A DNA stretch of 64,000 nucleotides, from the NCBI GenBank assembly GCA_963726745.1, contig CAVSDR010000006.1, forward strand, positions 288,001 to 352,000, in the 5' to 3' direction. Below are positions 2,557 to 64,000 of this stretch, piece after piece. The DNA is from an uncultured Verrucomicrobiae bacterium. GTDB lineage: Bacteria > Verrucomicrobiota > Verrucomicrobiia > Chthoniobacterales > UBA10450. A program made the translations under genes and the position numbers. Under the pieces are notes generated by a model. It did not search any database. It saw only the letters and a program-made list of their open reading frames with translations, and was not told where the DNA came from. The number at the start of each line of letters is the position of its first letter. The first letter of the stretch is position 1.

Positions 2557-4635
2557 CTAGCGGAAGAAAATCGGGATAATCAAAATGGCCACGATGTTGA
2601 CCACTTTAATCATCGGGTTGATCGCCGGGCCGGCGGTGTCCTTGTAAGGATCGCCCACGGTGTCGCCCGTGACCGAAGCCGCGTGCGCCATCGAGCCTTT
2701 GCCGCCGAGATTGCCTTCCTCGATATATTTCTTCGCGTTGTCCCACGCGCCGCCGCTCGAGGTCATGGCGATGGCCACAAACAAGCCAGTCACGATCGTG
2801 CCCACGAGCAGGCCGCCCAGAACCGTCGGCCCGAGCTGCGGAATCGCGGCCACGATGCAGACAAACGCCACCGGTAGAAGTGCCGGGATAATCATTTCGC
2901 GCAGGGCCGCCTTGGTCACGATGTCGACGCAAACGCCGTAGTCCGGCTTGTCCGCGCCGGTCAAAATTCCCGGCTTCGCAGTCAACTGCCGCCGCACTTC
3001 ACGCACGACCGCCCCGGCCGCTTTGCCGACCGCGTCCATGCTGAAAGCGGTGAAGAGGAACGGCAACAATCCGCCAATGAAAAGGCCGATGATCACCTTG
3101 GGATCGTTCAGCGAGAAATCGAAATTGCCCACGCGCCCGATGATCGCAAAGTGCGCCCGCAATTCCTCCACATAAGAGCCGAAGAGCACCAGCGCCGCGA
3201 GACCGGCGGAAGCGATCGCGTATCCCTTGGTCACGGCCTTCATCGTGTTGCCCACGGCGTCGAGGTCATCGGTGACCGCGCGCACTTCCTTGGGCAATTC
3301 GCTCATCACCGCAATGCCGCCGGCGTTGTCGGTGATCGGGCCAAAGGCATCCAGCGAGATGATAATGCCAGCCATCGAAAGCATGCTCATGACCGCGATC
3401 GCGATCCCGTAAAGGCCCGCGAAGTGATAGCTGAGTAAAATAGACAGCCCGATGAACGCCACCGGCAGCGCGGTCGCGTGCTGCCCGATTGCGAGACCGG
3501 CGATGATGTTCGTCGCGTGTCCGGTCTCGGAAGCCTTGGCGATTTTGCGCACCGGGCTGTAGGCCGTGGAGGTGTAGTAGTTCGTGATCAGCACGACCAA
3601 GAAAGTCATCGCCAGGCCGACCAAGGCAGAAGCGTAGAGCGCGTTCGCCGAATGCAGCAGGCCGCCGATGGCGACGCCGTTCGGGAAGAGCAGCCGCGTC
3701 GCCGGCCAGAAGAGCACCGCCGAAACTACCGCGCTCGCGCCGACCGCGCCCATAAGCGCCGCGCCCGGCTTCATCGTGGTCACGTTTACGAAAATGATGC
3801 CGAGAATCGCGCCGAGCACCGAGATGCCGCCGAGGATAAAGGGATAAACGATCGCCGCTGGGTAGGTCGGCAGGGTCAGCGCCGCGACCAGGATCGCGCC
3901 GATCAAGCTGACCGCGTAGGTCTCGAAAACGTCCGCTGCCATGCCGGCGCAATCGCCCACGTTGTCGCCCACGTTATCTGCGATCGTCGCCGGATTACGC
4001 GGATCGTCTTCGTCGAGGTTCTGCTCGATTTTGCCGACGAGATCGGCGCCCACGTCGGCCGCCTTGGTGTAAATGCCGCCGCCGAGACGCGCGAAAACGC
4101 TGATTAAACTCGCGCCCAGCGCCAGGCCGATGAGGCTCTTGACCGCCGGATCGTGCCCGATCATGCGGCTGGCCAGGGTGTAGAAAAGGCCCACCGAAAG
4201 GAGCGCCAAACCGACCACGAGCAGGCCGGTGACCGCGCCGCCATTGAAGGCCACGCGCATCGCCGCGGTGCGGGAAGTGGTCGCGGCAAAGGCGGTGCGC
4301 ACGTTGGCCAGCACCGCGATGCGCATGCCGATGTAACCGGCGGCTAACGAGCAGAAGGCCCCAATGAGAAAGCCGACCGCGGTCGCGCCGTCGCGGAAAA
4401 TAAACAGCAAGATGAAGATCACCACCGCGATCGCACTGATCGTGATCACCTGGCGATTCAGATACGCCTTGGCCCCTTCCTGGACGGCGCCGGCGATCTC
4501 GCGCATGCGTTCATTTCCGGGGGAACGGCTGATCACTGCCTTGATCAGGAAGAAGGCGAAAACGAGGCCACCGGCGGCCAAAAGCATCGAAAGGGTGACG
4601 CCGAAATCGAGGATCGAGAGAGCAAGCAAAGTCAT
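2557..4635 (-). CDS. hppA: Membrane-bound proton-translocating pyrophosphatase (probably K+-independent)
   Basis: [48 protein letters not shown] and [11 protein letters not shown] motifs; Lys in GNTMKA; start placed at ATG 4635. Confidence 0.95.
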
Positions 4636-4741
4636 AGGCAGGGTCGGAATTGAAGTGCGAGACGATAGGGACTTTTCCCTCACTGGCAACGGCTATCTGC
4701 CGCGTTTCCGCGCCCTCCAGAGCACTCGTTAGCGCGAGGGT

Positions 4742-7866: not shown

Positions 7867-9267
7867 CTATTTCGCGGCCGAAATCGGCGCGTGGTGGTAG
7901 TCGTGGCAGGTGGTGCAATTGCTCGCGACTTTCCCCGCCGGGCTGTGGCAGGCGACGCAGGAAGCCTTCGCCGGCAGGAGGACATCTGCCGTCTCGCGGC
8001 TGGCGGTCGCGTGATGGCAATCATTGCAACCCACGCTCTGGTGCTTCGCGTGGTTGAACTGGCCATGCAGCAGCCAGCGATCGACCAGGATCGGCTTTGT
8101 GACGAGCGGCGCGCCATGCGCCGCCGGTTTCACCTCGTGGCAAAAGGCGCAGCCATGGAAGACGCTGCCGATCGGCGGCGCGCTCCCTTCCACCTGGCGA
8201 TAGGGATCGCTCGTGAAAAAAATCTGCCGCTCGAAGTCCTCGCCGGAGCGCACCCGCTCGCGCAATTGTGTGAGCTGCGCGGCCACGAAACGCTCCCGCT
8301 GCGCTGGACTCGTTAGGCCCTTGCTCACCGCCAGCGCTTCGTATTGCCCCGGCAGCGTGCGCAGAAAACCGCGGACCGCCGCGGGATCGCCATGCGGCAA
8401 AGTGAGCTCGGGATTGCGCGGGTCGAACTGAAGCGCATGGCAGCTTCGGCAGTTCGCTTCGAAGCTGATCCGCCGCAGGTAGCGCCCGTCCGGCTCCGGC
8501 TGGTGGCAGCTGGCGCACTCGAGGCGCCGGCCATGAGACAGCGGGATGTCCGCCGCGAAGTGGCGTTGGTGATTGAAGCGCAGCGTGTCCGGATCGCGCG
8601 CCTGGTTTTGCTCCCAACGGAAGTCGGGATGCGCGCCATCGAAGCGCGCGAAGACCTGCGTCTGCCCATCCGGCGGCCGCGGAAGCTGCAGGGCCGCGCG
8701 CTGCGCGAGGTTGCGCGGCGGCGGGAAGGCGCTCGCAGGGAGCTGCCGGCCGAGCGCGGCCGAGGCCTGCATGACCTTGCGGTCGTTATGGCAGGCCGCG
8801 CAATCGCGATCGCTCGCGAGCGAGATCGCCTCCGGTCCGCGGTGTTCCTGGTGGCACGCGGAGCAGGAGCGATTCGCGACCACCGTGGGCGCATGAAAAT
8901 CCCGATCCGCGTGACAGTTGGCGCACTTGCCGTCGATCAGCGCCACCGTCGTGCGCAGGTTAAATTGCTGCCCGAGGGCAAAGCCGAGCTTGTAAGGATC
9001 GAGCAACTCGCGCGGCGCCAGCTTTGGCTGGTGGCACTTCGCGCAATCCTGCGCGATGAGCGCATGACCGCTCGAGATCGCGCCCGGATTGAAGAACTCC
9101 GGGTTGGCGTGTCGATGGTAATACAGCACCGCGAGCAGGCCGCCGACGAGCGCGACGAAGCTGACCGCGATGCGCGCTGCGCGCCAGGGATGCAGCCGTT
9201 TGTAATAAGCCAGATTGCCCTTGTAGCGCTCGGCGATCTGCTTCTGCGTGCGCGTCGGCTCGGCCAT
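7867..9267 (-). CDS. Membrane-anchored multiheme (10 CXXCH) cytochrome c
   Basis: CAKCH, CANCH, CSACH, CAACH, CASCH, CRSCH, CAFCH, CNDCH, CVACH, CTTCH; N-terminal TM segment. Confidence 0.92.
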   Translation of the reverse strand: MAEPTRTQKQIAERYKGNLAYYKRLHPWRAARIAVSFVALVGGLLAVLYYHRHANPEFFNPGAISSGHALIAQDCAKCHQPKLAPRELLDPYKLGFALGQQFNLRTTVALIDGKCANCHADRDFHAPTVVANRSCSACHQEHRGPEAISLASDRDCAACHNDRKVMQASAALGRQLPASAFPPPRNLAQRAALQLPRPPDGQTQVFARFDGAHPDFRWEQNQARDPDTLRFNHQRHFAADIPLSHGRRLECASCHQPEPDGRYLRRISFEANCRSCHALQFDPRNPELTLPHGDPAAVRGFLRTLPGQYEALAVSKGLTSPAQRERFVAAQLTQLRERVRSGEDFERQIFFTSDPYRQVEGSAPPIGSVFHGCAFCHEVKPAAHGAPLVTKPILVDRWLLHGQFNHAKHQSVGCNDCHHATASRETADVLLPAKASCVACHSPAGKVASNCTTCHDYHHAPISAAK

Positions 9268-12129: not shown

Positions 12130-14006
12130 ATGGACGCCAACGAAGAAAGCATCGCCGAAGACGTAGCCGCCGCCGGGGTTCCCGCGGCCACTGAAGGCAA
12201 GCCAATGAGCGAGCTCGAGCGCATCCGCCATTCCTGCGCTCACGTCCTCGCGACCGCGATCCTCAAGCTCTGGCCGGAGGCGCAATTCGCCGCCGGGCCG
12301 CCGGTGGAAAACGGTTTCTACTACGATGTCGATCTGCCGCACCGGATCACCCCGGAAGACTTCGCGAAGATCGAGGCCGAGATGAAAAAGGAGACAAAGG
12401 CGAACCACCCCTTCGAGCGCGTGGTTGTTTCGCGCGACGAGGCCCTCGCGCTGGCCCGCGAAGGCAAACTGGCCGCGCTCGGCGCGCGCAATGCGCCGTC
12501 TAAATTCAAGCTCGATATCGTGGAGCACATCCCCGAGGGCGAAGAAATCTCGCTCTATCGCAACGGCGAATTCACCGACCTCTGCGCCGGCCCGCACGTC
12601 ATGCGCACCGGGAACATCGGCGCCTTCCGCCTCACCCACGTGGCCAGCGCCTACTACAAAGGCGACGAGAAAAATCCGCAACTCCAGCGCATCTACGGCA
12701 CCGCTTTTAAGAACAAGACGCAGCTCGAAGAATACTTCGCCATGCTCGAGGAGGCGAAGAAGCGCGACCACCGCAAGCTCGGGAAAGAGCTCGAGCTTTT
12801 CACCTTCGACGACGACGTCGGCCCCGGCCTTCCGCTCTGGCTCCCGCGCGGCGCCGCCATCATCGAGGAACTCGAAAAGCTCGCCAAGGAAACGGAATTC
12901 GCCGCTGGCTACCAGCGAGTGCGCACGCCGCACATTGCCCGGGAGAATCTGTACCTAACGAGCGGTCACCTGCCCTACTACGCCGACTCGATGTTCCCGC
13001 CGATGGAGCTGCACGATCATGGCGCGGAAGAGGGAGCCGTCGGCGACAAATATTACCTCAAGGCGATGAACTGCCCGCATCACCACAAGCTCTTCGCTGC
13101 GGTGCCGCACAGTTATCGCGACCTGCCGCTGCGCTTCGCCGAATACGGCACAACTATCGCTACGAACAGAGCGGCGAGCTCTTCGGGCTCATGCGCGTGC
13201 GCTCGCTCCAGATGAATGACGCGCACATCTACTGCACGGAGGAGCAATTCGAAGACGAGTTCCGCGCGGTTAACGAGATGTATTTGAAGTATTTCAAAAT
13301 CTTCGGGATCGAGAAATACGTCATGCGCTTCTCGACGCATGATCCGGCCAAGCTCGGCCAGAAATTCGTGGATAACCCCGAGCTCTGGAAGAAAACCGAG
13401 GACATGGTCCGCGGCGTCCTCCAGCGCAGCGGAATCAACTACGTCGAAGTGCCAAACGAGGCCGCCTTCTACGGCCCGAAGATCGACGTCCAGGTCTGGA
13501 GCGCGATCGGGCGCGAGTTCACCATCGCGACCAACCAGGTCGACTTCGCTGTCCCGGCTAAGTTCGGCCTGGTCTACAAGACCCGCGAAAACACCGAGGC
13601 CACGCCGCTTTGCATTCACCGCGCACCACTCGGGACGCACGAGCGTTTCATCGGCTTCCTGATCGAACATTATGCCGGCAATTTCCCGCTCTGGCTCGCG
13701 CCCGAGCAGGTGCGCGTGCTCCCGATCGGCGACGAGCCGGCGCTGGTCGAGTATGCCCGCAAAATAGCCGACGAATTGCGCGCGCACGAAGTCCGTTGCG
13801 AGCTCGACGCGACTAACGATCACATCAAGGCGAAGATCTCCAGCGCCGAGCAAATGAAGGTGCACACCATGCTCGTGATCGGCGGCCGCGACCTGGAAGC
13901 GAACGCGGTCAGCCTGCGCGAGCACGGCAAAGGCAACCTCGGCGCGCGACCGCGGGACGAGGCCATCGCCCGCATCCTGGCGGCCATCCGCCAGCGCGCT
14001 GCCTAA
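12130..14006 (+). CDS. thrS: Threonine--tRNA ligase (apparent 1-base frameshift near 13151)
   Basis: RHSCAHVLA, DLCAGPH, RDHRKLG, KAMNCPHH; continues in another frame as YRYEQSGELFGLMRVR...FYGPKID...IHRAPLGTHERF. Confidence 0.95.
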
Positions 14007-14710
14007 CGACCCAGCGTGACGATGTCGCGCACCAGGCGCAGGGTATCGACCAGGCCGCGCAGGAGCTTGCGATTCTTCTCTTTTTGCAAAGTGCGCCCCT
14101 GCGGAGTGAAGAGCTCGTTCTGCGCCTGCTCGAGCTTGTTGATCTCCGCGATCGCCTGCTCCGCCGGCTGGTAGCTCGGGTTCACCTCGAGCACCGCGCC
14201 ATACTGCAGGCGCGCCTGCGCCAGCTCGCCGCGCAGGAAATGGGCAAAGCCGATCGCGTTGTGCACCCGCCAGATCTCGGGATTCACCGGGACCTGCAAC
14301 CGCGCCGCGCGCGCGCGCTCGATCGCTTCCACCTGCTCGAGGTATTGCACCGCCAGCCGGAGGTCTTCGTCTTTCCGGTCGCCCTCGCGCTTCAAGTAGG
14401 TCAGCAACCGGCCGGCGTGCAGGTAGGAAGTCCCGCAGCGAAACGGGATCTCCGGCGCGCGCTCCGTCTCCGGTTGGCCCGCGCGCTCGAGCTCGGTGAT
14501 CGAAGCCGCCGCCAGCCGCCCGGCCCACTCGTAGGCATCGATCGCCGGCTCACGTTTCCCGCGGCGCTCGAGCTTTGAAGCGCGCTCGCTTTCCACCAGC
14601 GCCTGCTCGTAGAGCTTCTTCGCCGGGTCGAGTCCGCTCTCTTCCTGCGCCCGGAGCCCGGGCGGCAGCAAGAGGAGAAAGAGCAGGCTAAAATGGAAGC
14701 GAGACCGCAC
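14003..14710 (-). CDS. Secreted TPR-like helical protein
   Basis: Signal-like FSLLFLLLLPPGLRA after GTG 14710; TPR-like HNAIGFAHFLRGELAQARLQYGAVLEVNPSY. Confidence 0.7.
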   Translation of the reverse strand: MRSRFHFSLLFLLLLPPGLRAQEESGLDPAKKLYEQALVESERASKLERRGKREPAIDAYEWAGRLAAASITELERAGQPETERAPEIPFRCGTSYLHAGRLLTYLKREGDRKDEDLRLAVQYLEQVEAIERARAARLQVPVNPEIWRVHNAIGFAHFLRGELAQARLQYGAVLEVNPSYQPAEQAIAEINKLEQAQNELFTPQGRTLQKEKNRKLLRGLVDTLRLVRDIVTLGR

Positions 14711-14821
14711 CGCGCAGCTTCCCTTTGCGTCCCAGCCTCGGCAACTGTTTGCATCGCCCGGCAAAATTCCCCACAACAGAGAGAACGTGTCCCCCGCTCC
14801 CTGGCCTAACGAGTGTCCATC

Positions 14822-15271: not shown

Positions 15272-15519
15272 AGCATCTTTGCCCGGTCTGCGGCTATCCC
15301 CACCTCGAGGAAGCGCCCCGCACTGCAGAGGGAGGCGGCTCGTTCGAGATCTGCCCGAGCTGCGGCTTTCAATTCGGCGTGAGCGATGAAGATGCCGGCT
15401 ATTCCTTCGCGGAATGGCGAGAGGCCTGGCGCGCCGCCGGGATGCCGTGGTCGAGCGTGCGGAAGCCGCCGCGCGGCTGGAATCCGGCGCGGCAACTGGC
15501 CGCGCTCCTCAGTCGTTAG
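15268..15519 (+). CDS. Cys-rich CPCC-like small protein (possible immunity protein)
   Basis: MKHLCPVCGY...FEICPSCGFQFG; ATGA overlap with the upstream gene. Confidence 0.75.
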   Translation: MKHLCPVCGYPHLEEAPRTAEGGGSFEICPSCGFQFGVSDEDAGYSFAEWREAWRAAGMPWSSVRKPPRGWNPARQLAALLSR

Positions 15520-16468
15520 GCAGCGAGTCCGTCCCGCCGCGCAAAAGAGCCAGCGCTTTCACAAACGCGGCCTCGCTTTGCGGGACCACCACGGACGTTT
15601 CGAAGTGACCCGCGTCCGGGAGAGGCAGCAAGACCGCGCGGTCGCCAGCCTTCTCCGCCGCAGCGACGTAGCTCCTCACGCTTGCGGGATCGACGATCGG
15701 GTCGCGTTCGCCCTGGAGGAAAATCTGCGGAACGCCGAGCGGCAGGCGCTCGCTCGGCGAGGTCTCGGCATAGCGGGCCGCGACCTTATCCGGCGCGCCG
15801 CCCAGGAGCGGCTCGACCGCGGAGTGACAACTGTCGGGCGGACCGATGCGGTAGTGCGCGAGATCGGTGATCGCCGCCAGCCCGAGCACGCCGCGGAGCG
15901 GCACCGGATCTTTCGCGTAGAGCTCGCTGTCTTTGGACAGGCGCGCGCGGCTCGCGAGCCAGAGCGCGAGCTGCCCGCCGGCCGAATGACCCGCGGCGTA
16001 GACCTGCTCGAGGTCGAGCGGCGCAGCCTTGGCGAGTTCGCGCAGATGATCCGTGGCTTGGGCCACATCGAGGAACGTCGTGGGCCAGCCGCCGCCATTT
16101 CCCAGCCGGCGATATTCGATCGTCCAGGTGGCAAACCCATGCGCGGTCAGCCAGGCCGAAAGCCGGGTGATGTATTGGTAATCAAACGCCGACTGCCAGC
16201 AGCCGCCATGGATCACGACCATCACTGGGAACGGTCCCTTCCCGGGCGGCAGCCGCAGTTCGCCGAGCTGCTCAGGCGCGCTCCCATACGCCCGGCGCTC
16301 CCCGGCGGGCGGCCGCGGCATTTTCCCGAGCTCGGACCAGCTGAGAGTTTTCGCCGGTGACGGCGAAGACGACGGCTCCGCCAAAGCCAGACTCGTTAGG
16401 CAAAGAGAAAGCGCGAGCGAGAGTTTGATCACTGGCGGAAACGGTGGCCCGCTTCGCGCGCGGTTCAA
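15509..16468 (-). CDS. Alpha/beta hydrolase (esterase/lipase), signal peptide
   Basis: IHGGCW oxyanion motif, GHSAGG nucleophile, GERDPIV and AGHF; start may be GTG 16432. Confidence 0.9.
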   Translation of the reverse strand: MNRARSGPPFPPVIKLSLALSLCLTSLALAEPSSSPSPAKTLSWSELGKMPRPPAGERRAYGSAPEQLGELRLPPGKGPFPVMVVIHGGCWQSAFDYQYITRLSAWLTAHGFATWTIEYRRLGNGGGWPTTFLDVAQATDHLRELAKAAPLDLEQVYAAGHSAGGQLALWLASRARLSKDSELYAKDPVPLRGVLGLAAITDLAHYRIGPPDSCHSAVEPLLGGAPDKVAARYAETSPSERLPLGVPQIFLQGERDPIVDPASVRSYVAAAEKAGDRAVLLPLPDAGHFETSVVVPQSEAAFVKALALLRGGTDSLPND

Positions 16469-17628
16469 CCGCCACCGCGCCGGAGGAGTTCGGCGACGAA
16501 GATCCCGGCGTAGGTGCCGAGGGCGTTGCCTAACGAGCCGACGAGGATGCCGGGCAGGCGGAGGTCATTGCGCCCGAGCGCGGTCGCGAGCACCCCGGCG
16601 CTGGTGGCGCCGCCGATATTGGCATTCGAGGCCACCGCGATCATGGCCCAATCCTGCCGGAGCAACCCGGCCAGGCCGAAGAGCAGCGCGCCGTGCACGA
16701 AAACAATCAGCGTGACCCAAAGCAAAAGGACGCCAGCGACGGAGCCATTCGCGATCAGCGCGCCGATGTCGCAATAAGCGCCGATGACCGCGAGGAAGAG
16801 CAGGACCGCGAAGTAACCGAGGGTGCGCGCGCCGCGGAGTTTTTGCACCTGCGGGACCTGCGCGAGGACGAGCGCGAGCGTGGTCAGCACGAGGACCATC
16901 GGGAGGAACGGGAGCAGTTGGCTCACGACTTGGGAAACAAAAAGCGCGGCCAGGCCGAGGGCGAGCAGGAGCGAAAGATCGATCACGCTGATGGCTTCGC
17001 CGGCGGCCAACGCCTCCACGGTTGCGACCGGGGCCGCCGCGGCGCCGGGCACGCGACGCGGGAACCAGCGCTGCAGCAGGCGCGGGAGAAGGAGCGTGGC
17101 CACGATCCAGATGGTGGTGATGATGTTGTCGGCCGCGTTGATCGCGGCAAAAAGCGTCCCGTCCTTGGTCACGCCGTACTGCAGCGCGACGGCGTTAAGG
17201 TTCACGCTCCCGCCGATGTAGGTGCCGGTGAACATGCCGGCCACGGCGTGAGCCTGGCGGACGCCATGAAGGTCCGGCCTAACGAGTTGATAGCCCACGT
17301 AGGTGCCGACCAACGTGGTCAGCGCGCCCGCGGCGAAGAGCAGGAGCATGGGCACGCCCGCGAGGCGGAGGTCGCGCAGGCGGACATCGAGCAGGAGGAA
17401 GAAAATCGCCAGCGGTGCGAGGTAGACAAAGATGCCGTCATAGAGCGGCGGGGCGTTTCGCGAGGAGGGCAGCACGCCAAGGTTGGCCAGGACCGCGGCC
17501 GCGAGGATAACCACGAGCGCGGAGCCGGCGGCGCGGAAGAACGGGCGGCGACAAATCCACTCCGAGAAAGCGACCAGCAGGAGGAGGACGGTGCCGACGT
17601 AAAGCGGATCGGAGAGGACGGAAAGCAC
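16465..17628 (-). CDS. DUF819-family membrane protein
   Basis: Multi-TM; TGTYIGGSVN and ASNANIGG re-entrant motifs. Confidence 0.8.
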   Translation of the reverse strand: MLSVLSDPLYVGTVLLLLVAFSEWICRRPFFRAAGSALVVILAAAVLANLGVLPSSRNAPPLYDGIFVYLAPLAIFFLLLDVRLRDLRLAGVPMLLLFAAGALTTLVGTYVGYQLVRPDLHGVRQAHAVAGMFTGTYIGGSVNLNAVALQYGVTKDGTLFAAINAADNIITTIWIVATLLLPRLLQRWFPRRVPGAAAAPVATVEALAAGEAISVIDLSLLLALGLAALFVSQVVSQLLPFLPMVLVLTTLALVLAQVPQVQKLRGARTLGYFAVLLFLAVIGAYCDIGALIANGSVAGVLLLWVTLIVFVHGALLFGLAGLLRQDWAMIAVASNANIGGATSAGVLATALGRNDLRLPGILVGSLGNALGTYAGIFVAELLRRGGG

Positions 17629-17703: not shown

Positions 17704-18846
17704 ATGGGGTCGAGCAGCCTAACGAGTGAAGAGCGGGCGCGCTACGCGCGGCACTTGATCATGCCGGAAGTGACCCTGGCGGGGCAGGAGCGTTTAAAAG
17801 CTGCGCGCGTGCTCTGCATCGGCGCGGGCGGGTTGGGCTCGCCGGCGGCGCTTTACCTCGCGGCTGCGGGCGTGGGCACGCTCGGACTGGTGGATGCCGA
17901 CGAGGTGGAGCTCTCGAATCTCCAGCGACAATTGCTCCACGGCACGAGCGACGTGGGCCGCGCAAAAATAGACAGCGCGCTCGGCCGCTTGCGGGAGATC
18001 AACCCACACGTGCAGACCGTCCCGCATCGCTGCCGTTTCACCGCGGAGAACGCAGAGGAAATCCTCGCGGGCTACGACCTGGTGGTCGATGGCTCGGATA
18101 ATTTTCCCACACGCTACCTCTCAAACGACGTCTCTGTTTTTGCGCGCAAGCCGAACGTCTACGGCTCGGTTTTTCGCTTCGACGGACAGACGACAGTCTT
18201 CGCGCCGCACCTCGGCGGGCCGTGTTACCGGTGCCTGTTCCCGGAACCGCCGCCGGCGGGGACGGTGCCAAATTGCGCGGAAGCCGGCGTGCTCGGCGTG
18301 CTCCCGGGAATCATCGGAACGCTCCAGGCGATCGAGGCGATCAAGCTCATCCTCGGCTTGGGCGAATCGCTCGTCGGCCGGCTGCTGCACTTCGATGCGC
18401 TAAAGATGAAGTTCCGCACTTTCAATCTTCGACGCGATCCGCAATGTCCCGTCTGCGGCGAGCAACCCACGATTACCGCGCCGATCGATTACGAAGCTTT
18501 TTGCGATATGACCACACCGACCAACGACGTGCCCGAGATCACCGTGCAGGAGCTACAGGAAATGCGGGAAGCGCAGAAGGATTTTGTGCTCCTGGATGTG
18601 CGCGAGCCGCACGAATACGAGCTCGCGCGGATCGAGGGGGCGCAACTCATTCCGCTGGGAGAATTGCCCGCGCGGCTGGAAGAGGTCGAGCGCGGGAAGG
18701 AACTGGTGGTCCACTGCCACGGCGGCGTGCGCAGCGCTCATGCGGTCCAGCTCCTGCAGCAGGCCGGCTTCAACCGCGCGCGGAATTTAGCCGGCGGGAT
18801 CGACGCCTGGTCGGTCGAGATCGACCCGGAAGTTCCGCGCTACTGA
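17704..18846 (+). CDS. moeB: MoeB/ThiF adenylyltransferase with C-terminal rhodanese domain (MoeZ-type)
   Basis: RYARHL, GAGGLGSP, SNLQRQ, CYRC and CPVC; rhodanese DVREPHE...HCHGGVRS...LAGGIDAW. Confidence 0.93.
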   Translation: MGSSSLTSEERARYARHLIMPEVTLAGQERLKAARVLCIGAGGLGSPAALYLAAAGVGTLGLVDADEVELSNLQRQLLHGTSDVGRAKIDSALGRLREINPHVQTVPHRCRFTAENAEEILAGYDLVVDGSDNFPTRYLSNDVSVFARKPNVYGSVFRFDGQTTVFAPHLGGPCYRCLFPEPPPAGTVPNCAEAGVLGVLPGIIGTLQAIEAIKLILGLGESLVGRLLHFDALKMKFRTFNLRRDPQCPVCGEQPTITAPIDYEAFCDMTTPTNDVPEITVQELQEMREAQKDFVLLDVREPHEYELARIEGAQLIPLGELPARLEEVERGKELVVHCHGGVRSAHAVQLLQQAGFNRARNLAGGIDAWSVEIDPEVPRY

Positions 18847-21076: not shown

Positions 21077-21094
21077 GCCGCCAGCCTTAACTCG

Positions 21095-47076: not shown

Positions 47077-47133
47077 TGGGCGAGAAGCGTAGCGCACTTC
47101 GGCGACTTTCCGATAGTCGTTAGGCTGGAAACG

Positions 47134-50704: not shown

Positions 50705-51495
50705 TGGTAGCCGGCCGGAAAGAGGACGTTAAGCGCCATCGTGAGGAAGAAATTAAACACCAACACGGCCAGCGACGCGTCCACCACCGCCTCGGTGGTC
50801 GCGCGGCCAACACCGACCGCGCCCTCACGTGTCGTTAGCCCTTTGTGGCAGGCGATAATGACGATCAAGATGGCGAAGGCGAAGGCCTTCGAGAGCGACA
50901 TGGTGATGTCGCGCATTTGCGTCCAGCGAACCATGTTCGCGACGTAGTAGGGGCCGTTGACTTCAAGCAACCCAATGGCCACGAAGTAGCCCGCGGCGAT
51001 GCCGACGCCGACGCATTCCGCAACCAGCAGCGGCATCGAAACCATCATCGCAAGGACGCGCGGGACCACCAGGTAATCGATCGGATGCACCGCGAGCGCG
51101 CGGAGGGCGTCGATTTGCTCGGTCACCTTCATCGTCCCGATTTCGGCCGACATCGAGGCGCCTACGCGCCCGGTGACCATGAGTGCGGTTAAGACCGGCC
51201 CGAGTTCGCGAAAGATGGAAACGCTCACGACTGCGCCCACCGCTGAGCCCATCCCGAGCTTGTTGAATTGGAAGAAAGTCTGCGCCGCGAACACCGCCCC
51301 GGTGAAAGCGCCGGTTATGACCACGACCGATTGCGAGCGCAGCCCGATCTCGACGATTTGCGCGAGAAAAAGCCGCCAACGAATCTTCTGCGTGGCGATC
51401 GAGGCGATCGTTTCGCCCGCGAGGACGACGAGTTCGCCGCCGTAGGTAAAGAAGCGGATGACCGCCGCCCCGAGCGCCGTGAGCAACCGCGTCAT
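50701..51495 (-). CDS. mlaE: MlaE-like ABC permease
   Basis: RELGPVLTALMVTGRVG, AEIGTMKVTEQIDAL and GVGRATT. Confidence 0.92.
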   Translation of the reverse strand: MTRLLTALGAAVIRFFTYGGELVVLAGETIASIATQKIRWRLFLAQIVEIGLRSQSVVVITGAFTGAVFAAQTFFQFNKLGMGSAVGAVVSVSIFRELGPVLTALMVTGRVGASMSAEIGTMKVTEQIDALRALAVHPIDYLVVPRVLAMMVSMPLLVAECVGVGIAAGYFVAIGLLEVNGPYYVANMVRWTQMRDITMSLSKAFAFAILIVIIACHKGLTTREGAVGVGRATTEAVVDASLAVLVFNFFLTMALNVLFPAGYQ

Positions 51496-53546: not shown

Positions 53547-56035
53547 CTAACTCGCGCTCGCGGTTTCGCTGCCCTGCGGCTCGGCCACGTTGAAAGTCAG
53601 CTTGCCGTCTCTCGCTTCCGTGTGGACGACGTCGCCGGCTTTTACGTTGCCGCGCAAAAGCTCTTCCGCGAACGGATCCTCGAGATAACGCTCGACCGCG
53701 CGCCGCATCGGCCGTGCGCCGTACTGTGGGTCGTAGCCTTTTTCGATGAGGAATTCCTTGGCCGATTGCGCGAGCTCGATATGCACTTCCTTCGCCTTGA
53801 TTCGGGCCAGGACCTTGGCCACTTCGAGATCGACGATCTGAAGCAGGTCGACCTTGGTCAGCTGATGGAAGACGATGATGTCGTCGAGGCGGTTGATGAA
53901 CTCCGGCTTGAAGGCCTTTGCGTCGCTTCTTCGAGCAGACGGTCGCGCATGGTCTCGAACTCATGTTCGCCCACCGGCTTGGTCGCGCCGAAACCCATCG
54001 TGGTCTGCTTGCGCAGGATCTCTGCGCCCACGTTGGAGGTCATGATAATGATCGTGTTCCGGAAATCGATCTTCCGGCCTAACGAGTCAGTCACCTTCCC
54101 TTCCTCGAGGATTTGCAGGAGCAGATGCATCACATCCGGGTGCGCCTTTTCGATTTCGTCAAACAGCACCACCGAGTAAGGCCGACGCCGCACCGCCTCG
54201 GAAAGCTGGCCGCCTTCCTCATAGCCGACATAGCCCGGAGGCGAGCCGATCAAGCGCGAGGCGGTGAACTTTTCCATGTACTCCGACATGTCGATCTGGA
54301 TGAGCGCATCGCGGTCGCCGAACATGAATTCCGCGAGCGTCTGCGCGAGGAAGGTTTTGCCGACGCCAGTCGGGCCGAGGAAAATGAACGAACCAATCGG
54401 CCGGCGCGGATCTTTCAAATCGGCACGGCTGCGGCGGAGCGCCTTGGAGATCGCCGTGACCGCCTCGTCCTGGCCGATGACCTTGCCTTTCAACTCGGAT
54501 TCCATCGCGAGCAGCTTGGCGGTTTCCTTCTGCTCCATCTTCTGGAGCGGCACGCCCGTCACCTTCGAGATGATGTTCATCATGTCGTCGGCTGTCACCA
54601 GGACTTCCTTCTCTTCGCGCTCTTCGCGCCATTGCGCGAGGATCGCCTCGAGCTTGTCCTTGGTCTGCTTTTCCTTGTCGCGCAGCGAGGCCGCCTTCTC
54701 GAAATCCTGCGCCTTGATCGCGCCTTCTTTCTCGACGCGGATTTCCTCGATCTCTTTTTCGATCTCCTTCACGTCCGGCGGACGCGTCATCGCATTGATC
54801 CGCGCGCGGGCGCCGGCTTCGTCCATCACATCGATCGCCTTGTCCGGCAGGAACCGGCCGGTGATGTAGCGCTCGGAGAGCTTGACGGCTAATTCCAGCG
54901 ACTCGTCGGTTAATTTCGCCTTGTGATGCGCCTCATATTTCGGGCGCAGACCTTTCAAGATCAGGATCGCCTCGTCGACCGTCGGAGCCTCAACCTTCAC
55001 CGTCTGGAAGCGGCGTTCGAGCGCCGCGTCTTTCTCGATGTATTTGCGATACTCGTTCAGCGTCGTCGCGCCGACACACTGCAATTCCCCGCGGCTCAAG
55101 GCCGGCTTGATGATGTTCGACGCATCCATCGCGCCCTCGGCCGAGCCCGCGCCCACGATCGTGTGCAGCTCGTCGATGAAAAGGATGACATTCTTCGAGC
55201 GGCGAATCTCGTCCATCACTGCTTTGATCCGTTCTTCAAACTGACCGCGATATTTCGTTCCCGCGACCATGAGCGCGAGGTCGAGCGTGATCACTTTCTT
55301 GTCGCGCAAAAGCTCCGGCACGTTGCCGCTGGCAATTTCCTGCGCCAGACCTTCCGCGATCGCGGTCTTGCCCACGCCAGCTTCGCCCAGCAACACCGGG
55401 TTGTTCTTCGTCCGGCGGCAAAGCACCTGGATGACGCGCTCGATTTCGTTCACGCGGCCGATCACGGGATCCAGCTCGCCCTTTTTCGCCAGCTCCGTGA
55501 GGTCGCGGCCAAAAGCGCGCAGCGCCGGCGTCTTCACGTCCTTCTTGCCACCGGTCCCCTGTTCCGGTCCACCTTCGCCCTCGGATTCCGGCGGAGTGAA
55601 ATTCGGATCGAGTTCCTTGAGAATTTCGTTGCGGGTGCGCTCGATATCGACCTCGAGACTCTTGAGCACGCGCGCGGCCACGCCTTCGCCTTCACGTAAA
55701 AGACCCAGCAAGATGTGCTCGGTGCCGACGTAGGAATGGTTGAGCGCCTTCGCTTCCTTGCCCGCAAGCGCGAGCACTTTCTTCACGCGCGGCGTGTAGG
55801 GAATGTTCCCGACCATCTTGGTCTCCGGGCCAGAACCCACCTGTTTCTCGACTTCCATGCGCACGGTCTCGAGATCCATGCCCATCTTCTGGAGGACATT
55901 CACGGCCACGCCTTGACCCAACTTGATCAACCCAAGCAGAAGATGCTCGGTGCCGACATAGTTGTGGTTGAAGCGGTCTGCTTCCTTGCGAGCGAGCGCC
56001 AGGACTTGCTGGGCTCGCGGAGTGAAATTGTTCAT
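53547..56035 (-). CDS. clpC: ATP-dependent Clp protease ATP-binding subunit ClpC; apparent frameshift near 53920
   Basis: Clp-N repeats (GTEHLLLGL), [16 protein letters not shown] and [14 protein letters not shown]-terminus [10 protein letters not shown] in another frame. Confidence 0.95.
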
Positions 56036-57154: not shown

Positions 57155-57645
57155 TTCTCGGCCAACTGCGTTTCGAGCTGCTTGATCTGGTCGCGCAAAC
57201 TCGCGGCGGTTTCGTAATTTTCGTCCGCCACCGCCTTCTGCAAATCACTCGTTAGGCTGCGCATCCGGTCGCTTAGCTCGATTTCGCGATGCGCCCGCTG
57301 CGGCAGCTTGCCGACATGCTCGGTGCCCTTGTGCATCGCCTTGAGCAGGCTCCCGAGGCCTTCCGAGAAAGTCCCATAGCAAGCACTGCAGCCCAGCCGC
57401 CCGGTCTTCTTGAAATCCGCCTGCGTATAGCCGCACACCGGGCACTTCTGCGCCGGCGCTCCCTTTTCGATTTCCTCCGCCGCGCCGATGCCGAGCAGCA
57501 GGTCGGCTAGTGCAAAGCCGGTCGGGTCCTGCACGCCCTTTTCCTTCGAGCAGGCATCGCAAAGATTCACCTTCTGCATCTTGCCTTCGACAATCTGCGT
57601 CAGGAAAACCGTGGCATCATTGCATTTGCAAACGTCGCACAACAT
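57151..57645 (-). CDS. mcsA: McsA (UVR domain, four CXXC)
   Basis: CDVC, CDAC, CPVC and GRLGCSAC; ENYETAASLRDQI. Confidence 0.92.
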   Translation of the reverse strand: MLCDVCKCNDATVFLTQIVEGKMQKVNLCDACSKEKGVQDPTGFALADLLLGIGAAEEIEKGAPAQKCPVCGYTQADFKKTGRLGCSACYGTFSEGLGSLLKAMHKGTEHVGKLPQRAHREIELSDRMRSLTSDLQKAVADENYETAASLRDQIKQLETQLAEK

Positions 57646-57733: not shown

Positions 57734-58657
57734 TCAGGAGTCAATCGGGGTGCCGCCCTCGCGCACTAACTCGCGGAAGCGCGCGATGATCCGGCCGGTT
57801 AAGGCCCCGGGCTTGCCATCCCCGATCACGCGGCCGTCCGCCTTGATCACCGGGATCACTTCCGCGGCCGTCCCCGTAAGGAAACACTCGTCGGCAATGA
57901 ATACGTCGTGCCGGGTGATCTCGGTTTCAGTGATCTTCATCCCCAGCTCGTCGGCAATCTCGAAAACCACCGAGCGCGTGATCCCGCGGAGCGCGCCCGC
58001 GGAGATCGGCGGGGTGAAGATTTGCCCCTTCTTGATGATGAAAACATTGTCTGCGGTGCACTCGGCGATGTTGCCCGCTTCGTTCAACATCAGCGCTTCG
58101 TCCGCGCCCGCGAGGTTCGCCTCGATCCGCGCCATCACGTTGTTCAGGTAGTTGAGCGACTTCACCGCCGGGCTGAGCGCGGCCGCACTCACGCGACGGG
58201 TTGCGCAGGTCACGATCGTGAGGCCATTGCGATAAACTTCCTCCGGATAAAGCGCGATCGTCGCGGCGATAATGATCACGCTCGGCTTCTTACAAAGCGC
58301 AGGATTGAGCCCCAGATTGCCGACGCCGCGCGTCACTACCTGCCGGATGTAACCATCGCGCAGCCCGTTTTGCCGGATCGTTTCCAGGAGCGCTTCCGTC
58401 ATCTCCTCGCGGCTCAGCGGAATTTCCAAAAGGATGCTGCGCGCGGAGTCCCACAGCCGGTCGAGATGCTCTTCCAAACGGAAGACGCGCCCATTGTAAA
58501 AGCGGATCCCTTCGAAAATGCCGTCGCCGTAAAGCAGGCCGTGATCGAAGACGGAAATCTTCGCTTCCGCCTCCGGAAGGAACGCTCCATCGAGATAAAT
58601 AATCGACGACTTCTTGGCGGCCGGCGCCCCGGCGCGCGACTCGTTAGCGGGCTTCAT
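57734..58657 (-). CDS. ilvE: Branched-chain amino acid aminotransferase
   Basis: DHGLLYGDGIFEG, KSLNYLNN, LRGITR and FLTGTAAEV; start may be 58711. Confidence 0.93.
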   Translation of the reverse strand: MKPANESRAGAPAAKKSSIIYLDGAFLPEAEAKISVFDHGLLYGDGIFEGIRFYNGRVFRLEEHLDRLWDSARSILLEIPLSREEMTEALLETIRQNGLRDGYIRQVVTRGVGNLGLNPALCKKPSVIIIAATIALYPEEVYRNGLTIVTCATRRVSAAALSPAVKSLNYLNNVMARIEANLAGADEALMLNEAGNIAECTADNVFIIKKGQIFTPPISAGALRGITRSVVFEIADELGMKITETEITRHDVFIADECFLTGTAAEVIPVIKADGRVIGDGKPGALTGRIIARFRELVREGGTPIDS

Positions 58658-59507: not shown

Positions 59508-60463
59508 GGTGTGCGCAACGCCAGCCCCGCCCGGAACCAGGCCAGGTCGCGCTCCCGTTCCTGCAAAAGTTTTCGCGCCGCCGCCAGCGGCACTTCCACG
59601 AAACGCACTTCGTCGCCCGCGCGCAATTGCGCCGCCTTCGGGAGATCGACCGTGATCACGTGGCCGATCTTCGGGTAGCCGCCGATCGTTTGGCAATCCC
59701 CGAGCAGGATCACCGGCTGCCCATTAGGCGGCACCTGGATCGTTCCCGGCGCGACTGGCTCGGAAACGAGATCGTCGCGATGCGAGCCGACGATCTTACG
59801 CCCCCGCAAACGCAGGCCCATGCGATCGGAATCAGCGGTCACGGCAAAAGTCTCACGGGTGAAAGCTCCCTGCGCTTCGCCGAAGAATTCGTCCCAGCCA
59901 TTTCCGCGCACGAAATGCAGAATTCCCGGCACGGGCGAAGGGCGCGACCACTCGCGAGGGGCAAAACAGTTTGCTGGCTGTTTTTCGATGATCGCCGCGG
60001 GACCGAGCGGCAGTTCGTCGCCCTCGCGCAAGGCCCGGCCCTGCCAGCCGCCGAAGCCCGCGCGCAGGTCAGTCGCGCGGCTCCCGAGGACCAGCGGCAC
60101 GTCGATTCCGCCGCGAATGGCGAGCCATAGCCGCGCACCTTTCGGCGGCGCCGCCAAGGTCAGCTCCGCGCCCGCGGGCACGGAGATTCGCTGGCCCGGC
60201 GGCAGGCTTTCGTTATCCAAAGTGACGGCAAAATCTCCGCCGCACCAGGCGATCGCGCGCGCCTCCTCGAAGCGCAGGACGACCGTGCCGAGAGCCGCTT
60301 CCAAACCGGCGGCGGTCTCGGGATTACCCACCAGGAGATTCGCCACCCGCAGCGCCACCGGGTCGAGCGCGCCCGCCAGCGGCACCCCGCTCGCGCGATA
60401 TCCCGCCCGCCCCAGATCCTGCACGCTGCAGAGAAAACCGGCGCGCCTAACGAGCAATCGCAT
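59504..60463 (-). CDS. pxpC: 5-oxoprolinase subunit C (allophanate hydrolase subunit 2-like)
   Basis: VQDLGR, ANLLVGN, SDRMG and QTIGGYPKI. Confidence 0.9.
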   Translation of the reverse strand: MRLLVRRAGFLCSVQDLGRAGYRASGVPLAGALDPVALRVANLLVGNPETAAGLEAALGTVVLRFEEARAIAWCGGDFAVTLDNESLPPGQRISVPAGAELTLAAPPKGARLWLAIRGGIDVPLVLGSRATDLRAGFGGWQGRALREGDELPLGPAAIIEKQPANCFAPREWSRPSPVPGILHFVRGNGWDEFFGEAQGAFTRETFAVTADSDRMGLRLRGRKIVGSHRDDLVSEPVAPGTIQVPPNGQPVILLGDCQTIGGYPKIGHVITVDLPKAAQLRAGDEVRFVEVPLAAARKLLQERERDLAWFRAGLALRTP

Positions 60464-61498: not shown

Positions 61499-61560
61499 GC
61501 GAGCGGGAGAATAGATTTACGCGCGGAGGTCGCGCTGGCAGGATGCCGCGGTTTGCCGCC

Positions 61561-64000
61561 ATGAAAGCCTGGAAGATCACGCTCCTCTTCGCCGCGCTCG
61601 CGCTCCTCCTTTGGTGGCTCGCGCCTTCGCGCGCGCTCTCGCGCGAGCCTGGCGTGGTCGAGATCAGCTACCTCGGCGACAGTGGGCCAAACTCCGCCGC
61701 GGTCGAGGATGCGATTCGTGTTTTTGAAAACGAAAGCCGTGCGCGCCATGCGGCCGATCCCACGCAGCCGATCTATCGCGTGATCGCCGGGCAAAACGCC
61801 TCGCGCGACATGACCGCGGACCCGACGCGCTTTCTCGTGAGCGTGGCCGGTGGGCAACCGCCGGACCTGATCCTGTTCGATCGTTATGCGGTGAGCGAAT
61901 GGGCCGCGCGCGGGGCCTTCACCAAATTAGACAGCTTTCTCGCGCGCGAAGCCGCAGGCGGAAAAGCCGACCCGATCCGCGCGGAGAATTATTACCGCTC
62001 CTGCTGGGACGAGGTCGTGTTCGTCAATCCCGTTACCGGCGAGCGCGGGACCTACGGCATCCCGGAACGCGTGGACGACCGCGCGCTCTTTTATAATAAG
62101 TCGCTGCTAAAACGTGGTGGCTTCGTCGATGCCAGCGGCGAGGCGCGGCCGCCGCAGACGCTCGAGGAACTCGCCGCGATGGCGCCCGCGCTGACTGAGC
62201 GCGACGCGCGCGGCAACATCACGCGGCTCGGGTTTGCCCCGAACTACGGCAACGCCTGGCTCTACATCTACAGCTGGATGATGGGCGGCCAATTCCTGAG
62301 CGCGGATGCCAAGACCTGCACGCTCAACTCGCCCACGAACGTCGCCGCGCTCAACTGGATGGTGCAGGTTTACGATTCGGTCGGCGGCGCGGCGGCGGTC
62401 TATGCGTTCCAGAGCAGCGCGCAAACCGGGCAGCTCGATCCTTTCACCCAGGGCACGGTGGCGATGAAGATCGACGGCTACTGGAACTTCCCGGAAAACC
62501 TCGCGCAATTCGGCGCCAATTTAGACTACGGGCTCGCAGTGCCGCCGTTACCCGCGGCCGAGGTGGCGAAGGGGCGCAACGGTTTTTCGTGGGTCAGCGG
62601 CTGGTGCTTTGCGATTCCCTCCACCGCGCAGAACAAGGAAGGCGGTTGGGAATTGCTCCGTTTTCTCGCGAGTCCGCGCGCGGCCGAGATCATCGGCGAG
62701 AGCAACCGGCTGACGCTCGAGAGCCAGGGGCGCATCTATGTGCCCACACAAAGCGCGAATCGGCAGACTAACGAGTGGTTGTTCCAGCGCTACGTCGCCG
62801 GCAATCCCGCGGTCCCGGAGAAAGTGCGCGACGGCGTCAAGCTGCTGAATGATTTGCTCGAGACCTCGCCCTTCCGGCCAGTCACGCCCGTCGGCCAGCT
62901 CCTTTTCAACGAACAAAAACGCGCGACCGAGAACGCGATCTTCCACAAGCTCCCGCCGCAGGCCGCGCTCGACGAGAGCACGCGCGTAGTCCAGCAGGCG
63001 CTCGACCGCGCGCTCGCGCCCCCGCGCGGCGCGGTGATTCCGTGGCGGTATTTTATTTGGGTCTACCTCGCGCTCCTTCTCGCGACCGCGGGCTCCATCT
63101 ATTGGTGGGAAACCCGGCGACGGACCGTCGAGGGAACCCAGAGCCGCTATTTCCGCACCCAATGGCGCGGGGGCTGGCTCACCGCCTCGCCCTGGATCCT
63201 CGGCTTTATCGTGCTCACCGGCGGGCCGATTCTTTTCTCGGTCATCATTAGTCTAAGCGACTACGACATTCTCAATCCCGCGCGCTTCGTCGGCCTGGCG
63301 AATTACCGGCGGATGTTCACCGCCGACCCGCTTTTTTGGAAGGCGGTCGGCAACACCACTTACATGATCCTGGGCATTCCGCTCGGGATGGCGCTCAGCC
63401 TCGGGATCGCGCTCCTGCTCAACCTCGAGATCCGCGGCGTGGCCCTCTGGCGCACCTTTTTCTATCTCCCGTCGATCGTGCCTGCGGTCGCTTCCAGCAT
63501 TCTCTGGATCTGGATTTTCAATCCCAACGCCGGCCTCTTAAACAGCATTCTCTTGTCCTTCGGGATTCACGGTCCGAACTGGCTGCAGGATGAAAGCACG
63601 AGCAAACCGGCCTTGATCATCATGGGTCTCTGGAGCGCCGGCGGCGGAATGATCATCTGGCTCGCGGGCTTGAAAGGGATCAGCGAGACCTATTACGAAG
63701 CCGCGGCGCTCGACGGCGCGAATGCCTGGCAACGTTTCCGCCACGTGACCCTGCCGCTGCTCACGCCGTACATCTTCTTTAACGTCATCATGGGTCTCAT
63801 CGGCACGCTGCAGATCTTTACCCAGGCCTTTATCATGACCCAGGGCGGGCCGGTCGATTCGACGCTCTTCTACGCCTATCACCTGTTCAACCACGCCTTC
63901 CGCTTCCTGCAGATGGGCTACGCCTCTGCGCTCGGGTGGTTTCTCTTTTTGGCTGTGCTCGGGTTGACCTTGCTGCAGCTCAAGCTCTCGAAACGCTGGG
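61561..64000 (+). CDS. Carbohydrate ABC transporter: extracellular solute-binding protein fused to a permease; runs off the window
   Basis: Frame open from ATG 61561 to the end (absent from the ORF track); PPDLI and LFYNK SBP motifs, then TMs, FVGLANY, FYLPS and EAAALDGA (EAA loop). Confidence 0.88.
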   Translation, partial: MKAWKITLLFAALALLLWWLAPSRALSREPGVVEISYLGDSGPNSAAVEDAIRVFENESRARHAADPTQPIYRVIAGQNASRDMTADPTRFLVSVAGGQPPDLILFDRYAVSEWAARGAFTKLDSFLAREAAGGKADPIRAENYYRSCWDEVVFVNPVTGERGTYGIPERVDDRALFYNKSLLKRGGFVDASGEARPPQTLEELAAMAPALTERDARGNITRLGFAPNYGNAWLYIYSWMMGGQFLSADAKTCTLNSPTNVAALNWMVQVYDSVGGAAAVYAFQSSAQTGQLDPFTQGTVAMKIDGYWNFPENLAQFGANLDYGLAVPPLPAAEVAKGRNGFSWVSGWCFAIPSTAQNKEGGWELLRFLASPRAAEIIGESNRLTLESQGRIYVPTQSANRQTNEWLFQRYVAGNPAVPEKVRDGVKLLNDLLETSPFRPVTPVGQLLFNEQKRATENAIFHKLPPQAALDESTRVVQQALDRALAPPRGAVIPWRYFIWVYLALLLATAGSIYWWETRRRTVEGTQSRYFRTQWRGGWLTASPWILGFIVLTGGPILFSVIISLSDYDILNPARFVGLANYRRMFTADPLFWKAVGNTTYMILGIPLGMALSLGIALLLNLEIRGVALWRTFFYLPSIVPAVASSILWIWIFNPNAGLLNSILLSFGIHGPNWLQDESTSKPALIIMGLWSAGGGMIIWLAGLKGISETYYEAAALDGANAWQRFRHVTLPLLTPYIFFNVIMGLIGTLQIFTQAFIMTQGGPVDSTLFYAYHLFNHAFRFLQMGYASALGWFLFLAVLGLTLLQLKLSKRW

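Follow-up and report, generated by a model that had tools for sequence, protein, structure and literature searches.

What maintains a short, asymmetric DNA word at high density along a bacterial chromosome is the question raised by a 64,000-nucleotide stretch of an uncultured Verrucomicrobiae genome (C6:288001-352000 of the assembly; GC content 63.9%), hereafter called the window. The genome (G000) comprises 3,406,779 bp in 7 contigs, with a GC content of 64%, and is rated 94.7% complete. The word is the 10-mer GCCTAACGAG, built on the core CTAACGA. A recount revealed 38 copies of the core in the window (21 on the + strand and 17 on the - strand), the first at position 4344 and the last ending at 62774, or 1 per 1.68 kb. 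This reproduced the original prediction, made from the sequence of the window, which had given the same number, strand split and span, a density of about 1 copy per 1.7 kb at ~65% GC, 24 copies in the form GCCTAACGA, 14 in the exact form GCCTAACGAG and most others as G[GA]CTAACGA (recounted as 24, 14 and 10, respectively). In 100 dinucleotide-preserving shuffles of the window, CTAACGA occurred 2.75 times on average (standard deviation 1.79, maximum 8) and never reached 38, and the 14 exact 10-mers compared with a shuffle mean of 0.09.

Genome-wide, CTAACGA occurred 2025 times (1034 on + and 991 on -) and GCCTAACGAG 820 times, the latter being the most frequent of all 10-mers, for which Markov models predicted 4.6 (order 1) or 6.1 (order 3) copies. 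Of 2782 CTAAC pentamers, 2025 (73%) extended to CTAACGA. Coding sequences were assessed on 2349 crude gene calls from long open reading frames (ORFs) with a coding-like GC content at third codon positions, which spanned 58-81% of each contig and ~77% of the genome. When these genes were shuffled 20 times with the protein sequence and each gene's own codon usage kept, the genic copies exceeded expectation 12-fold for CTAACGA (1444 observed, 118 ± 11 expected) and 68-fold for GCCTAACGAG (589 observed, 8.7 ± 3.4 expected). Enrichment over both the codon shuffle and the Markov models bore out the signal that had been claimed, and the over-representation of CTAACGA and GCCTAACGAG was confirmed as real, strong and maintained. 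A literature search yielded no description of GCCTAACGAG, or of any uptake sequence in Verrucomicrobia, and in a search with the 9-mer in either orientation the best 10 of 130 matches were all oligonucleotide strings from unrelated work.

The word is a signal at the DNA level: it is kept against codon preference, is spread through the core genome in either orientation and is common to the genus. Called genes contained 71% of the sites (1436 of 2025; 551 sense and 885 antisense), and uncalled DNA held 589. Based on the crude calls, genic copies were read antisense as S-L-G (TCG TTA G) at 610 sites and as L-V-R at 181, and in the sense direction as L-T-x at 273 and P-N-E at 278; the word provided the TAG stop of a gene at 94 sites, and the two frames in which it would create a stop contained no copy. 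The rare codons TTA and CTA lay inside the word in 611 of 2627 and 275 of 1285 cases, respectively. In the window, copies occurred in housekeeping genes, among them those for H+-PPase, an aminoacyl-tRNA synthetase, RNase D, ClpC and PilM. The H+-PPase site at 4344 read TCG TTA GCC (S L A), with the core present in 6 of 27 aligned genomes, and the remaining genomes encoded the same residues by common synonymous codons of the TCC CTC GCG type.

The sequence logo was G(0.87) C(0.75) CTAACGA G(0.64) T(0.44) n n W(0.71), with a weak flank pattern around the core (..t.GC[core]Gt..w) and information limited to positions -2 to +11, indicating a bare word and not part of a longer repeat. This differs from repetitive extragenic palindromes and miniature inverted-repeat transposable elements, which are long, mainly intergenic and hairpin-forming, and GCCTAACGAG also differs from its own reverse complement, in contrast to palindromes of the HIP1 (highly iterated palindrome 1) type. 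Single substitutions at the core positions C-T-A-A-C-.-A were found at 0 to 0.9 of the second-order Markov expectation, with two exceptions (1.8x and 5.5x), and the near-match GCCTGACGAG had 2 copies where 13.9 were expected. At the sixth core position a change from G to A was accepted (93 copies, 58x expectation), and flank variants were over-represented up to 68x. The depletion of core substitutions and the excess of flank variants indicate that reading is strict within the core and lenient in the flanks, and near-matches seem, from these counts, to have been converted into matches.

The split between strands, nearly even in the window, was nearly even genome-wide as well (counts above). Over 69 bins of 50 kb, motif strand skew was unrelated to GC skew (r = -0.03, p = 0.82) and the proportions of + and - copies were homogeneous (p = 0.29), with +218/-209 in bins of positive GC skew and +717/-692 in bins of negative skew. 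Since the GC skew was weak and the contig order is unknown, only strong replichore polarity is excluded by this result. Copies of the word avoided each other, as expected if one per fragment suffices. The nearest copy lay within 100 bp at 4.2% of sites (11.1 ± 1.0% under random placement), within 200 bp at 10.3% (21.3%) and within 400 bp at 27.7% (38.0%). Spacings shorter than 200 bp made up 5.4% for the word and 12.3% for 40 control 7-mers of similar abundance, the minimum among these being 9.9%. Gaps larger than 8 kb between copies were also in excess (30 versus 16.5 expected), and the longest word-free gap, C7:60030-85007 (25 kb, 58.2% GC), was an O-antigen/polysaccharide island. Existing copies were conserved: in a 26.5-kb alignment of genomes G048 and G044 (85.7% identity), 40 of 48 cores were intact in the partner, compared to 40.1% of all 7-mers, and cores were lost mainly by changes of one or two bases.

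Analysis of related genomes revealed GCCTAACGAG in all 24 genus genomes searched, with 51 to 1549 copies per genome versus 11 to 57 for reversed-word controls; each genome exceeded its own control, barely in the lowest. Elsewhere in the order, 16 genomes representing 15 other families contained 0 to 14 copies. Core counts in 34 genus genomes ranged from 284 (below its control, 351) to 3705, an about tenfold variation in density. In a phylogeny based on a single gene (H+-PPase; 27 genomes, later 29, with a poorly resolved backbone and five genus genomes missing), the clades of high density were G000+G010+G042, G013+G024 and G049+G047+G048+G001+G044, and the core was at or near background in the clade around G002 and G005. 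Three genomes (G001, G008 and G042) are unpublished; they enter the counts and tree tips, and no conclusion depends on them alone. The ratio of 10-mer to core was constant (0.40-0.52) in high-density genomes, indicating that these share the same flanks, and G018 had the same word at a lower density. Variant dialects, which the original prediction had thought worth seeking in related genomes, did not emerge: there was no one-base dialect series, and no replacement word was found in samples of the low-density members G002 (254 kb), G003 and G005 (140 kb each). Nor did a comparable word appear in G027, G030 and G032, which belong to other families and of which 80-160 kb each were sampled.

Other enriched sequences were encountered in these samples. 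In G002 they were tandem arrays of the heptamers TTCCGCA and CCTACTT, and GGACGGCAA, which encodes a D-G-K peptide repeat; in G003 (140 kb), the palindrome-containing ACCGCGGTCG (18 copies versus 1.9 expected); and in G030 (160 kb), CGGCGTTCCC / CCGGGAACGCC (~19 copies versus 0.8 expected). Transfer from the genus to G028, a genome of another family, considered for 14 clustered 10-mers in that genome, was rejected, the copies being the start of a ~110-bp repeat that lies near contig ends, all in the same orientation, at intervals of 0.4-0.9 kb. Just one copy of this repeat, 79-83% identical, occurs in G000, at C6:739472-739594, with no called gene there, and an Rfam search with the G028 repeat gave no match.

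Based on these patterns, GCCTAACGAG may be a DNA-uptake-sequence-like word by which the genus would identify its own DNA, a reading to which we give about an even chance. A type IV pilus or competence receptor, on the surface or in the periplasm, would bind double-stranded DNA that contains the word, such that fragments from the genus itself would preferentially enter through the secretin, pulled by pilus retraction and ComEA, and would then pass through ComEC and undergo recombination assisted by DprA and RecA. Mutations that create the word would be transmitted more often than the alternatives. Under such a bias the word would accumulate wherever coding allows until each fragment held about one copy, and existing copies would stay intact. 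Taken together, strictness at the core, symmetry between strands, independence of reading frame, spacing at one copy per stretch, conservation across species and the lack of copies in foreign DNA form the pattern that results from biased uptake and homologous recombination in Pasteurellaceae and Neisseriaceae. The self-avoidance of copies also fits a result reported for the uptake signal sequence (USS) of Haemophilus influenzae, for which a second USS within 100 bp is described as giving no increase in uptake (PMC7811141).

The closest analogue of the word is the class formed by the USS of Pasteurellaceae and the DNA uptake sequence (DUS) of Neisseriaceae, from which it departs in two features, the known receptor family and the pairing at terminators. 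Like the USS, which has a 9-bp core and weaker flanking positions, the word combines a short non-palindromic core with soft flanks, is distributed over the two strands with about 0.6-1 copy per kb, is mostly genic in tolerated frames, is spread out, and is missing from foreign DNA. The USS is also described as having a biased orientation relative to genes (PMC2346458), as does the word with its antisense excess. It differs from the USS in phylum, sequence and GC context (TAA in a 64% GC genome), in a density that ranges from none to ~1000 per Mb within the genus, and in having few inverted pairs; moreover, it is known from sequence alone, and no receptor candidate was found for it, whereas for the USS the minor pilin ComN is the predicted receptor in a source on that system (PMC12616744). 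With the DUS, for which a ComP receptor and dialects are described (PMC3630211, PMC3868556), the word shares being a 10-mer limited to one taxon and variable among relatives; it differs in that its genome has no ComP_DUS protein above cut-off, in the lack of a one-base dialect series, and in the coexistence of an unrelated second word in a few genus genomes.

The machinery for uptake is present. The competence genes whose absence, according to the original prediction, would argue against DNA uptake are all encoded in G000, namely ComEC in an 849-amino-acid open frame, a ComEA-like protein of 95 amino acids with HHH_3, and DprA, along with three secretins, ~18 pilin-like genes and ten matches to ATPases of the PilB/PilT family (four PilB/GspE-like and six shorter, PilT-like). 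The window itself contains a type IV pilus assembly cluster at 31701-38023 (-), with PilM (36245-38023), two unannotated genes, a TPR protein and a secretin (31701-32849), which adjoins coaE and rho and holds three copies of the word.

Several observations weigh against the uptake reading. Competence genes are near-universal, control genomes scoring in 10 to 13 of 14 cases, and ComEC was found in 33 of 34 genus genomes regardless of word load. These include G002 (96% complete), which has no enrichment, so that the presence of competence genes is not discriminating; uptake genes permit the reading without supporting it specifically. In a search of the genome for the ComP_DUS family (PF16732), the best scores were 21.9 and 19.1 bits, below the cut-off of 27.3 and confined to the generic pilin part; a search for ComN was not made. 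The core density varies continuously between background and ~1000 per Mb over several clades, which is not predicted by one switch-like gain of a receptor. Terminators are stated to hold about half of DUS/USS copies, commonly in inverted pairs (bioRxiv 10.1101/2025.10.24.684340), whereas among the 2025 sites 10 inverted and 15 direct pairs occurred within 60 bp; terminators as such were not predicted, and with 10 inverted pairs only, the terminator-hairpin habit of DUS/USS is absent here. Finally, a second, unrelated word in the same genome departs from what is expected of an uptake sequence. The original proposal of an uptake-sequence-like element or a nucleoid-protein site is partly supported. 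The sequence-level predictions examined for an uptake-sequence-like element (strand symmetry without replichore polarity, frames, genus restriction, conservation, spacing, absence from atypical islands and presence of competence genes) held, and none of the refuting outcomes named with the proposal (no enrichment over a shuffle, polarity, no competence genes) was observed; no ComP-type receptor above threshold accompanies them.

A correlation of competence genes with the word was examined and rejected, the ComEC of the genome with the lowest load, G002, being intact. Within the low-motif clade, ComEC was also intact in G043, was divided into two frames in G005 (C12:409293-409950), and was not found in G045, which is 86% complete.

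The second word is new here, is unrelated to GCCTAACGAG, and complicates a picture of one word and one receptor. It consists of GGCTAAWT, with 629 copies in G000, inside [CG]A[AT]N[TG][TC]G[CT][CT]GGCTAA[AT]T[TC], or in a shorter consensus [CG]A..G..GGCTAAWT (A at -8 in 83% and G at -3 in 95% of copies). Of its copies 67% were genic, and like the first word it was present in each of the four stop-free frames and in either orientation. Counts of GYYGGCTAAWT were 539 in G000, 238 in G011, 113 in G015, 60 in G017, 45 in G009, 41 in G018, 36 in G002 and 29 in G045, and 25 or fewer in other genomes, with 2 in G010 and 6 in G042, the nearest relatives of G000; the carriers fell in three separate clades of the H+-PPase tree. 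Its spacing was Poisson (coefficient of variation 1.02), unlike that of the first word, and it was not depleted in the ten largest first-word gaps (21 copies versus 24 expected). This patchiness suggests that whatever writes the words can switch specificity quickly and patchily, which could reflect exchangeable receptors or a separate process, acting in situ, behind the second word. It is improbable, in our estimate, that the genus runs its own uptake system, independent of the two proteobacterial ones, with modular, exchangeable words that lineages acquire, amplify and lose, two of them in this genome, and two receptors; if so, gene flow among soil populations would meet barriers that shift with the repertoires of words. 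The patchy occurrence of the second word also amounts to a natural experiment, in which comparing phyletic patterns could lead to the gene or genes that read it. An 18.6-kb segment outside the window, C3:2761-21337, has a typical GC content (63.1%), no copy of the first word and seven of the second, and may be derived from a lineage that writes the second word only.

Among pilin-related genes, two from pilin clusters were tried as phyletic markers and had no clear pattern. A minor-pilin operon (C3:1032975-1034760) resembled the 'Verru_Chthon cassette' below cut-off, and its 247-amino-acid pilin had relatives elsewhere of at most 41% identity. A DUF7305 protein encoded next to a pilin pair (C6:624571-626130) had orthologues of 67-71% identity in G015, G018 and G002 only, and of 50% in G003 and G005. 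This pattern overlapped partially with that of the second-word carriers, since G011, G017 and G009 had no orthologue, and G003 and G005 have the protein without the word; as a putative receptor the DUF7305 protein is no more than a weak lead. The cluster of the pilin pair and DUF7305 (C6:623614-626130) is 3 kb from dprA, and both it and the minor-pilin operon are located in gaps free of the first word.

A possible, though somewhat unlikely, alternative to uptake is that the word is the binding site of a chromosomal DNA-binding protein, serving nucleoid organisation, condensin-like loading or a 'self' mark for defence or repair, with selection maintaining a regular spacing of sites along the resident chromosome. 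The more even than random spacing and the deficit of close pairs are consistent with such sites, as are the restriction of the word to the genus, its conservation across species and its absence from the atypical island, and a chromosomal role would also account for the lack of a competence-gene correlation. However, no candidate protein was found, steric exclusion covers ~30 bp and not a deficit extending to 200-400 bp, and a roughly tenfold range of density among close relatives would be odd for essential architecture. Sites of matS, SlmA, Noc and parS number tens, and we know of no nucleoid-protein array of ~2000 non-palindromic, non-polar 10-bp sites.

Rather less probable is that the word is a functionless by-product of biased mutation or repair, in which a methyltransferase and a nuclease of the very-short-patch type (Vsr) convert near-matches. 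A precedent of this kind has been proposed in HIP1 of cyanobacteria, which is palindromic and phylum-wide and with which the word shares an extreme, frame-independent genic excess of an 8-10-mer and the lack of a known mechanism; the word differs in being asymmetric and genus-wide, with no link to a methylase or Vsr found. All HIP-type elements known to us are palindromic, unlike GCCTAACGAG. Core variants with one mismatch were mostly below expectation, as if converted, the second word is patchy in a manner that looks horizontally transferred, and its normal density where the first word is missing suits an in-situ process by a mobile enzyme gene. The genome also encodes four DNA methyltransferases, as detected by screening the crude gene calls for [DNS]PP[YFW] (25 candidates, 20 of which were submitted to Pfam) and by searching for PF00145, although a methyltransferase may have been missed as the screen was limited to the 77% of the genome in gene calls. 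On the other hand, no Vsr-family gene was found in the 94.7%-complete genome, and self-avoidance of the copies would not follow from a bias in mutation. The four methyltransferases were compared in five genomes of contrasting load and the C5 enzyme in all 34. The sole C5 methylase had close orthologues in two of the 33 other genus genomes (G013, 64% identity, and G046, split), the query finding none in the motif-rich G044, G047, G048, G010, G042 and G001; an N6/N4 methylase was present in all five tested genomes regardless of load, and two N6 methylases had no matching pattern. An origin by methylase plus Vsr is consequently disfavoured, as there was no Vsr and no methyltransferase, among those compared, that tracked either word.

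Far less plausible is a Chi-like hotspot or a polar signal such as the KOPS (FtsK orienting polar sequences) or AIMS (architecture imparting sequences) type. Chi and KOPS are over-represented asymmetric oligomers as well, and the word is similarly short, non-palindromic and highly over-represented, but these elements are co-oriented with replication, and this role was rejected for the word by the absence of co-orientation with GC skew, although very weak polarity would escape, the GC skew being weak and the contig order unknown. An origin in codon bias, in a recurrent motif of the encoded peptides, in dispersed copies of a mobile element or in faulty assembly can hardly be credited at all and was rejected. 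Although antisense S-L-G is the preferred frame, with 610 of the 1436 genic sites, four frames and spacers are used, and the excess persists over the codon shuffle for both 7-mer and 10-mer; flank information ends beyond -2 to +11, which speaks against a mobile element, and the same word recurs in 24 separately assembled genus genomes, which speaks against an artefact.

To our knowledge, uptake of DNA that depends on its sequence has been described in only two families, both of host-associated Proteobacteria. If GCCTAACGAG is indeed an uptake word, it would be a third case, in another phylum and in free-living, uncultured soil bacteria, and self-preferring transformation would have evolved more than once. 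A 2025 comparative preprint covers, in the part of its text drawn on here, just those two families (bioRxiv 10.1101/2025.10.24.684340). In a dominant group of soil bacteria, population genetics would then be shaped by natural transformation, and the word would provide a genomic handle on recombination partners and on foreign DNA in metagenome-assembled genomes, with word-bearing DNA marked as core to the genus and word-free DNA as islands. If a chromosomal protein or a repair bias is responsible instead, the word would still be an unexplained genome-wide code that ties up about a quarter of TTA and CTA codons.

Individual copies of both words in the window, with their sequence form and genic context, are listed in Table 1.

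Table 1. Copies of the first word (core CTAACGA) and of the second word (GGCTAAWT) in the window, in window coordinates.
Form	Position	Strand	Context
core, GGCTAACGAG	4344..4350	+	antisense in H+-PPase gene, TCG TTA GCC = S L A
core	4726..4732	-	spacer between H+-PPase and MscS-like genes
GCCTAACGAA	6297..6303	+	spacer
exact 10-mer	8309..8318	-	sense, multihaem cytochrome c gene
GCCTAACGAA	12008..12014	-	sense, cNMP/4Fe-4S gene
ACCTAACGAG	12955..12961	+	no called gene there
GACTAACGAT	13813..13819	+	sense, class II aminoacyl-tRNA synthetase gene
GCCTAACGAC	14003..14009	+	reverse strand is TAG stop of gene 14003-15091
exact 10-mer	14804..14813	+	antisense, S L G frame
GCCTAACGAC	15513..15519	-	sense, hydrolase gene
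exact 10-mer	16392..16401	-	sense, hydrolase gene
exact 10-mer	16528..16537	+	antisense, DUF819 gene
exact 10-mer	17277..17286	+	antisense, DUF819 gene, frame other than that of 16528 copy
exact 10-mer	17717..17726	+	sense, ThiF/MoeB gene
exact 10-mer	18876..18885	+	antisense
GCCTAACGAC	21070..21076	-	TAG stop of MBL gene 20171-21076
GGCTAACGAG	21092..21098	-	spacer; direct repeat, 22 bp from 21070 copy
GCCTAACGAC	22198..22204	+	antisense, gene of 1435 amino acids
exact 10-mer	27041..27050	-	sense, FecR-like gene
GGCTAACGAG	29276..29282	+	antisense, RNase D gene
CCCTAACGAA	34387..34393	-	gene junction, pilus-assembly cluster
exact 10-mer	35047..35056	-	sense, pilus-cluster gene
GACTAACGAA	37308..37314	+	antisense, pilM
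GACTAACGAA	41871..41877	+	end of TPR gene
exact 10-mer	42284..42293	+	sense, SpoIIE-type phosphatase gene
GACTAACGAA	42905..42911	-	antisense, SpoIIE-type phosphatase gene
GGCTAACGAG	44547..44553	+	sense, Trp/Tyr-tRNA synthetase gene
GCCTAACGAC	44603..44609	-	just beyond gene end; convergent pair with 44547 copy, 56 bp apart
exact 10-mer	45959..45968	+	antisense, ACT/homoserine dehydrogenase gene
GCCTAACGAC	47117..47123	-	spacer
GCCTAACGAA	47757..47763	-	sense, FkbM methyltransferase gene
GGCTAACGAC	50832..50838	-	sense, mlaE
exact 10-mer	54077..54086	+	antisense, clpC
exact 10-mer	57248..57257	-	sense, McsA-like gene
CGCTAACGAG	58641..58647	-	sense, aminotransferase IV gene
exact 10-mer	60445..60454	+	antisense, carboxyltransferase gene
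GCCTAACGAA	60972..60978	+	antisense, carboxyltransferase gene
GACTAACGAG	62768..62774	+	sense, SBP/permease gene
second word	18785	-	
second word	28685	-	
second word	45495	+	
second word	54887	+	

Some conserved genes of the window appeared to be split over overlapping ORFs, at 56035-57154 (-), 44606-46346 (-) and 12082-14006 (+). A guanido kinase of the McsB type was in two pieces, a homoserine dehydrogenase was without most of its catalytic domain, and the match of a class II aminoacyl-tRNA synthetase began only at position 57 of the core domain. These split genes may reflect frameshifts caused by errors of long-read assembly or may be real pseudogenes.

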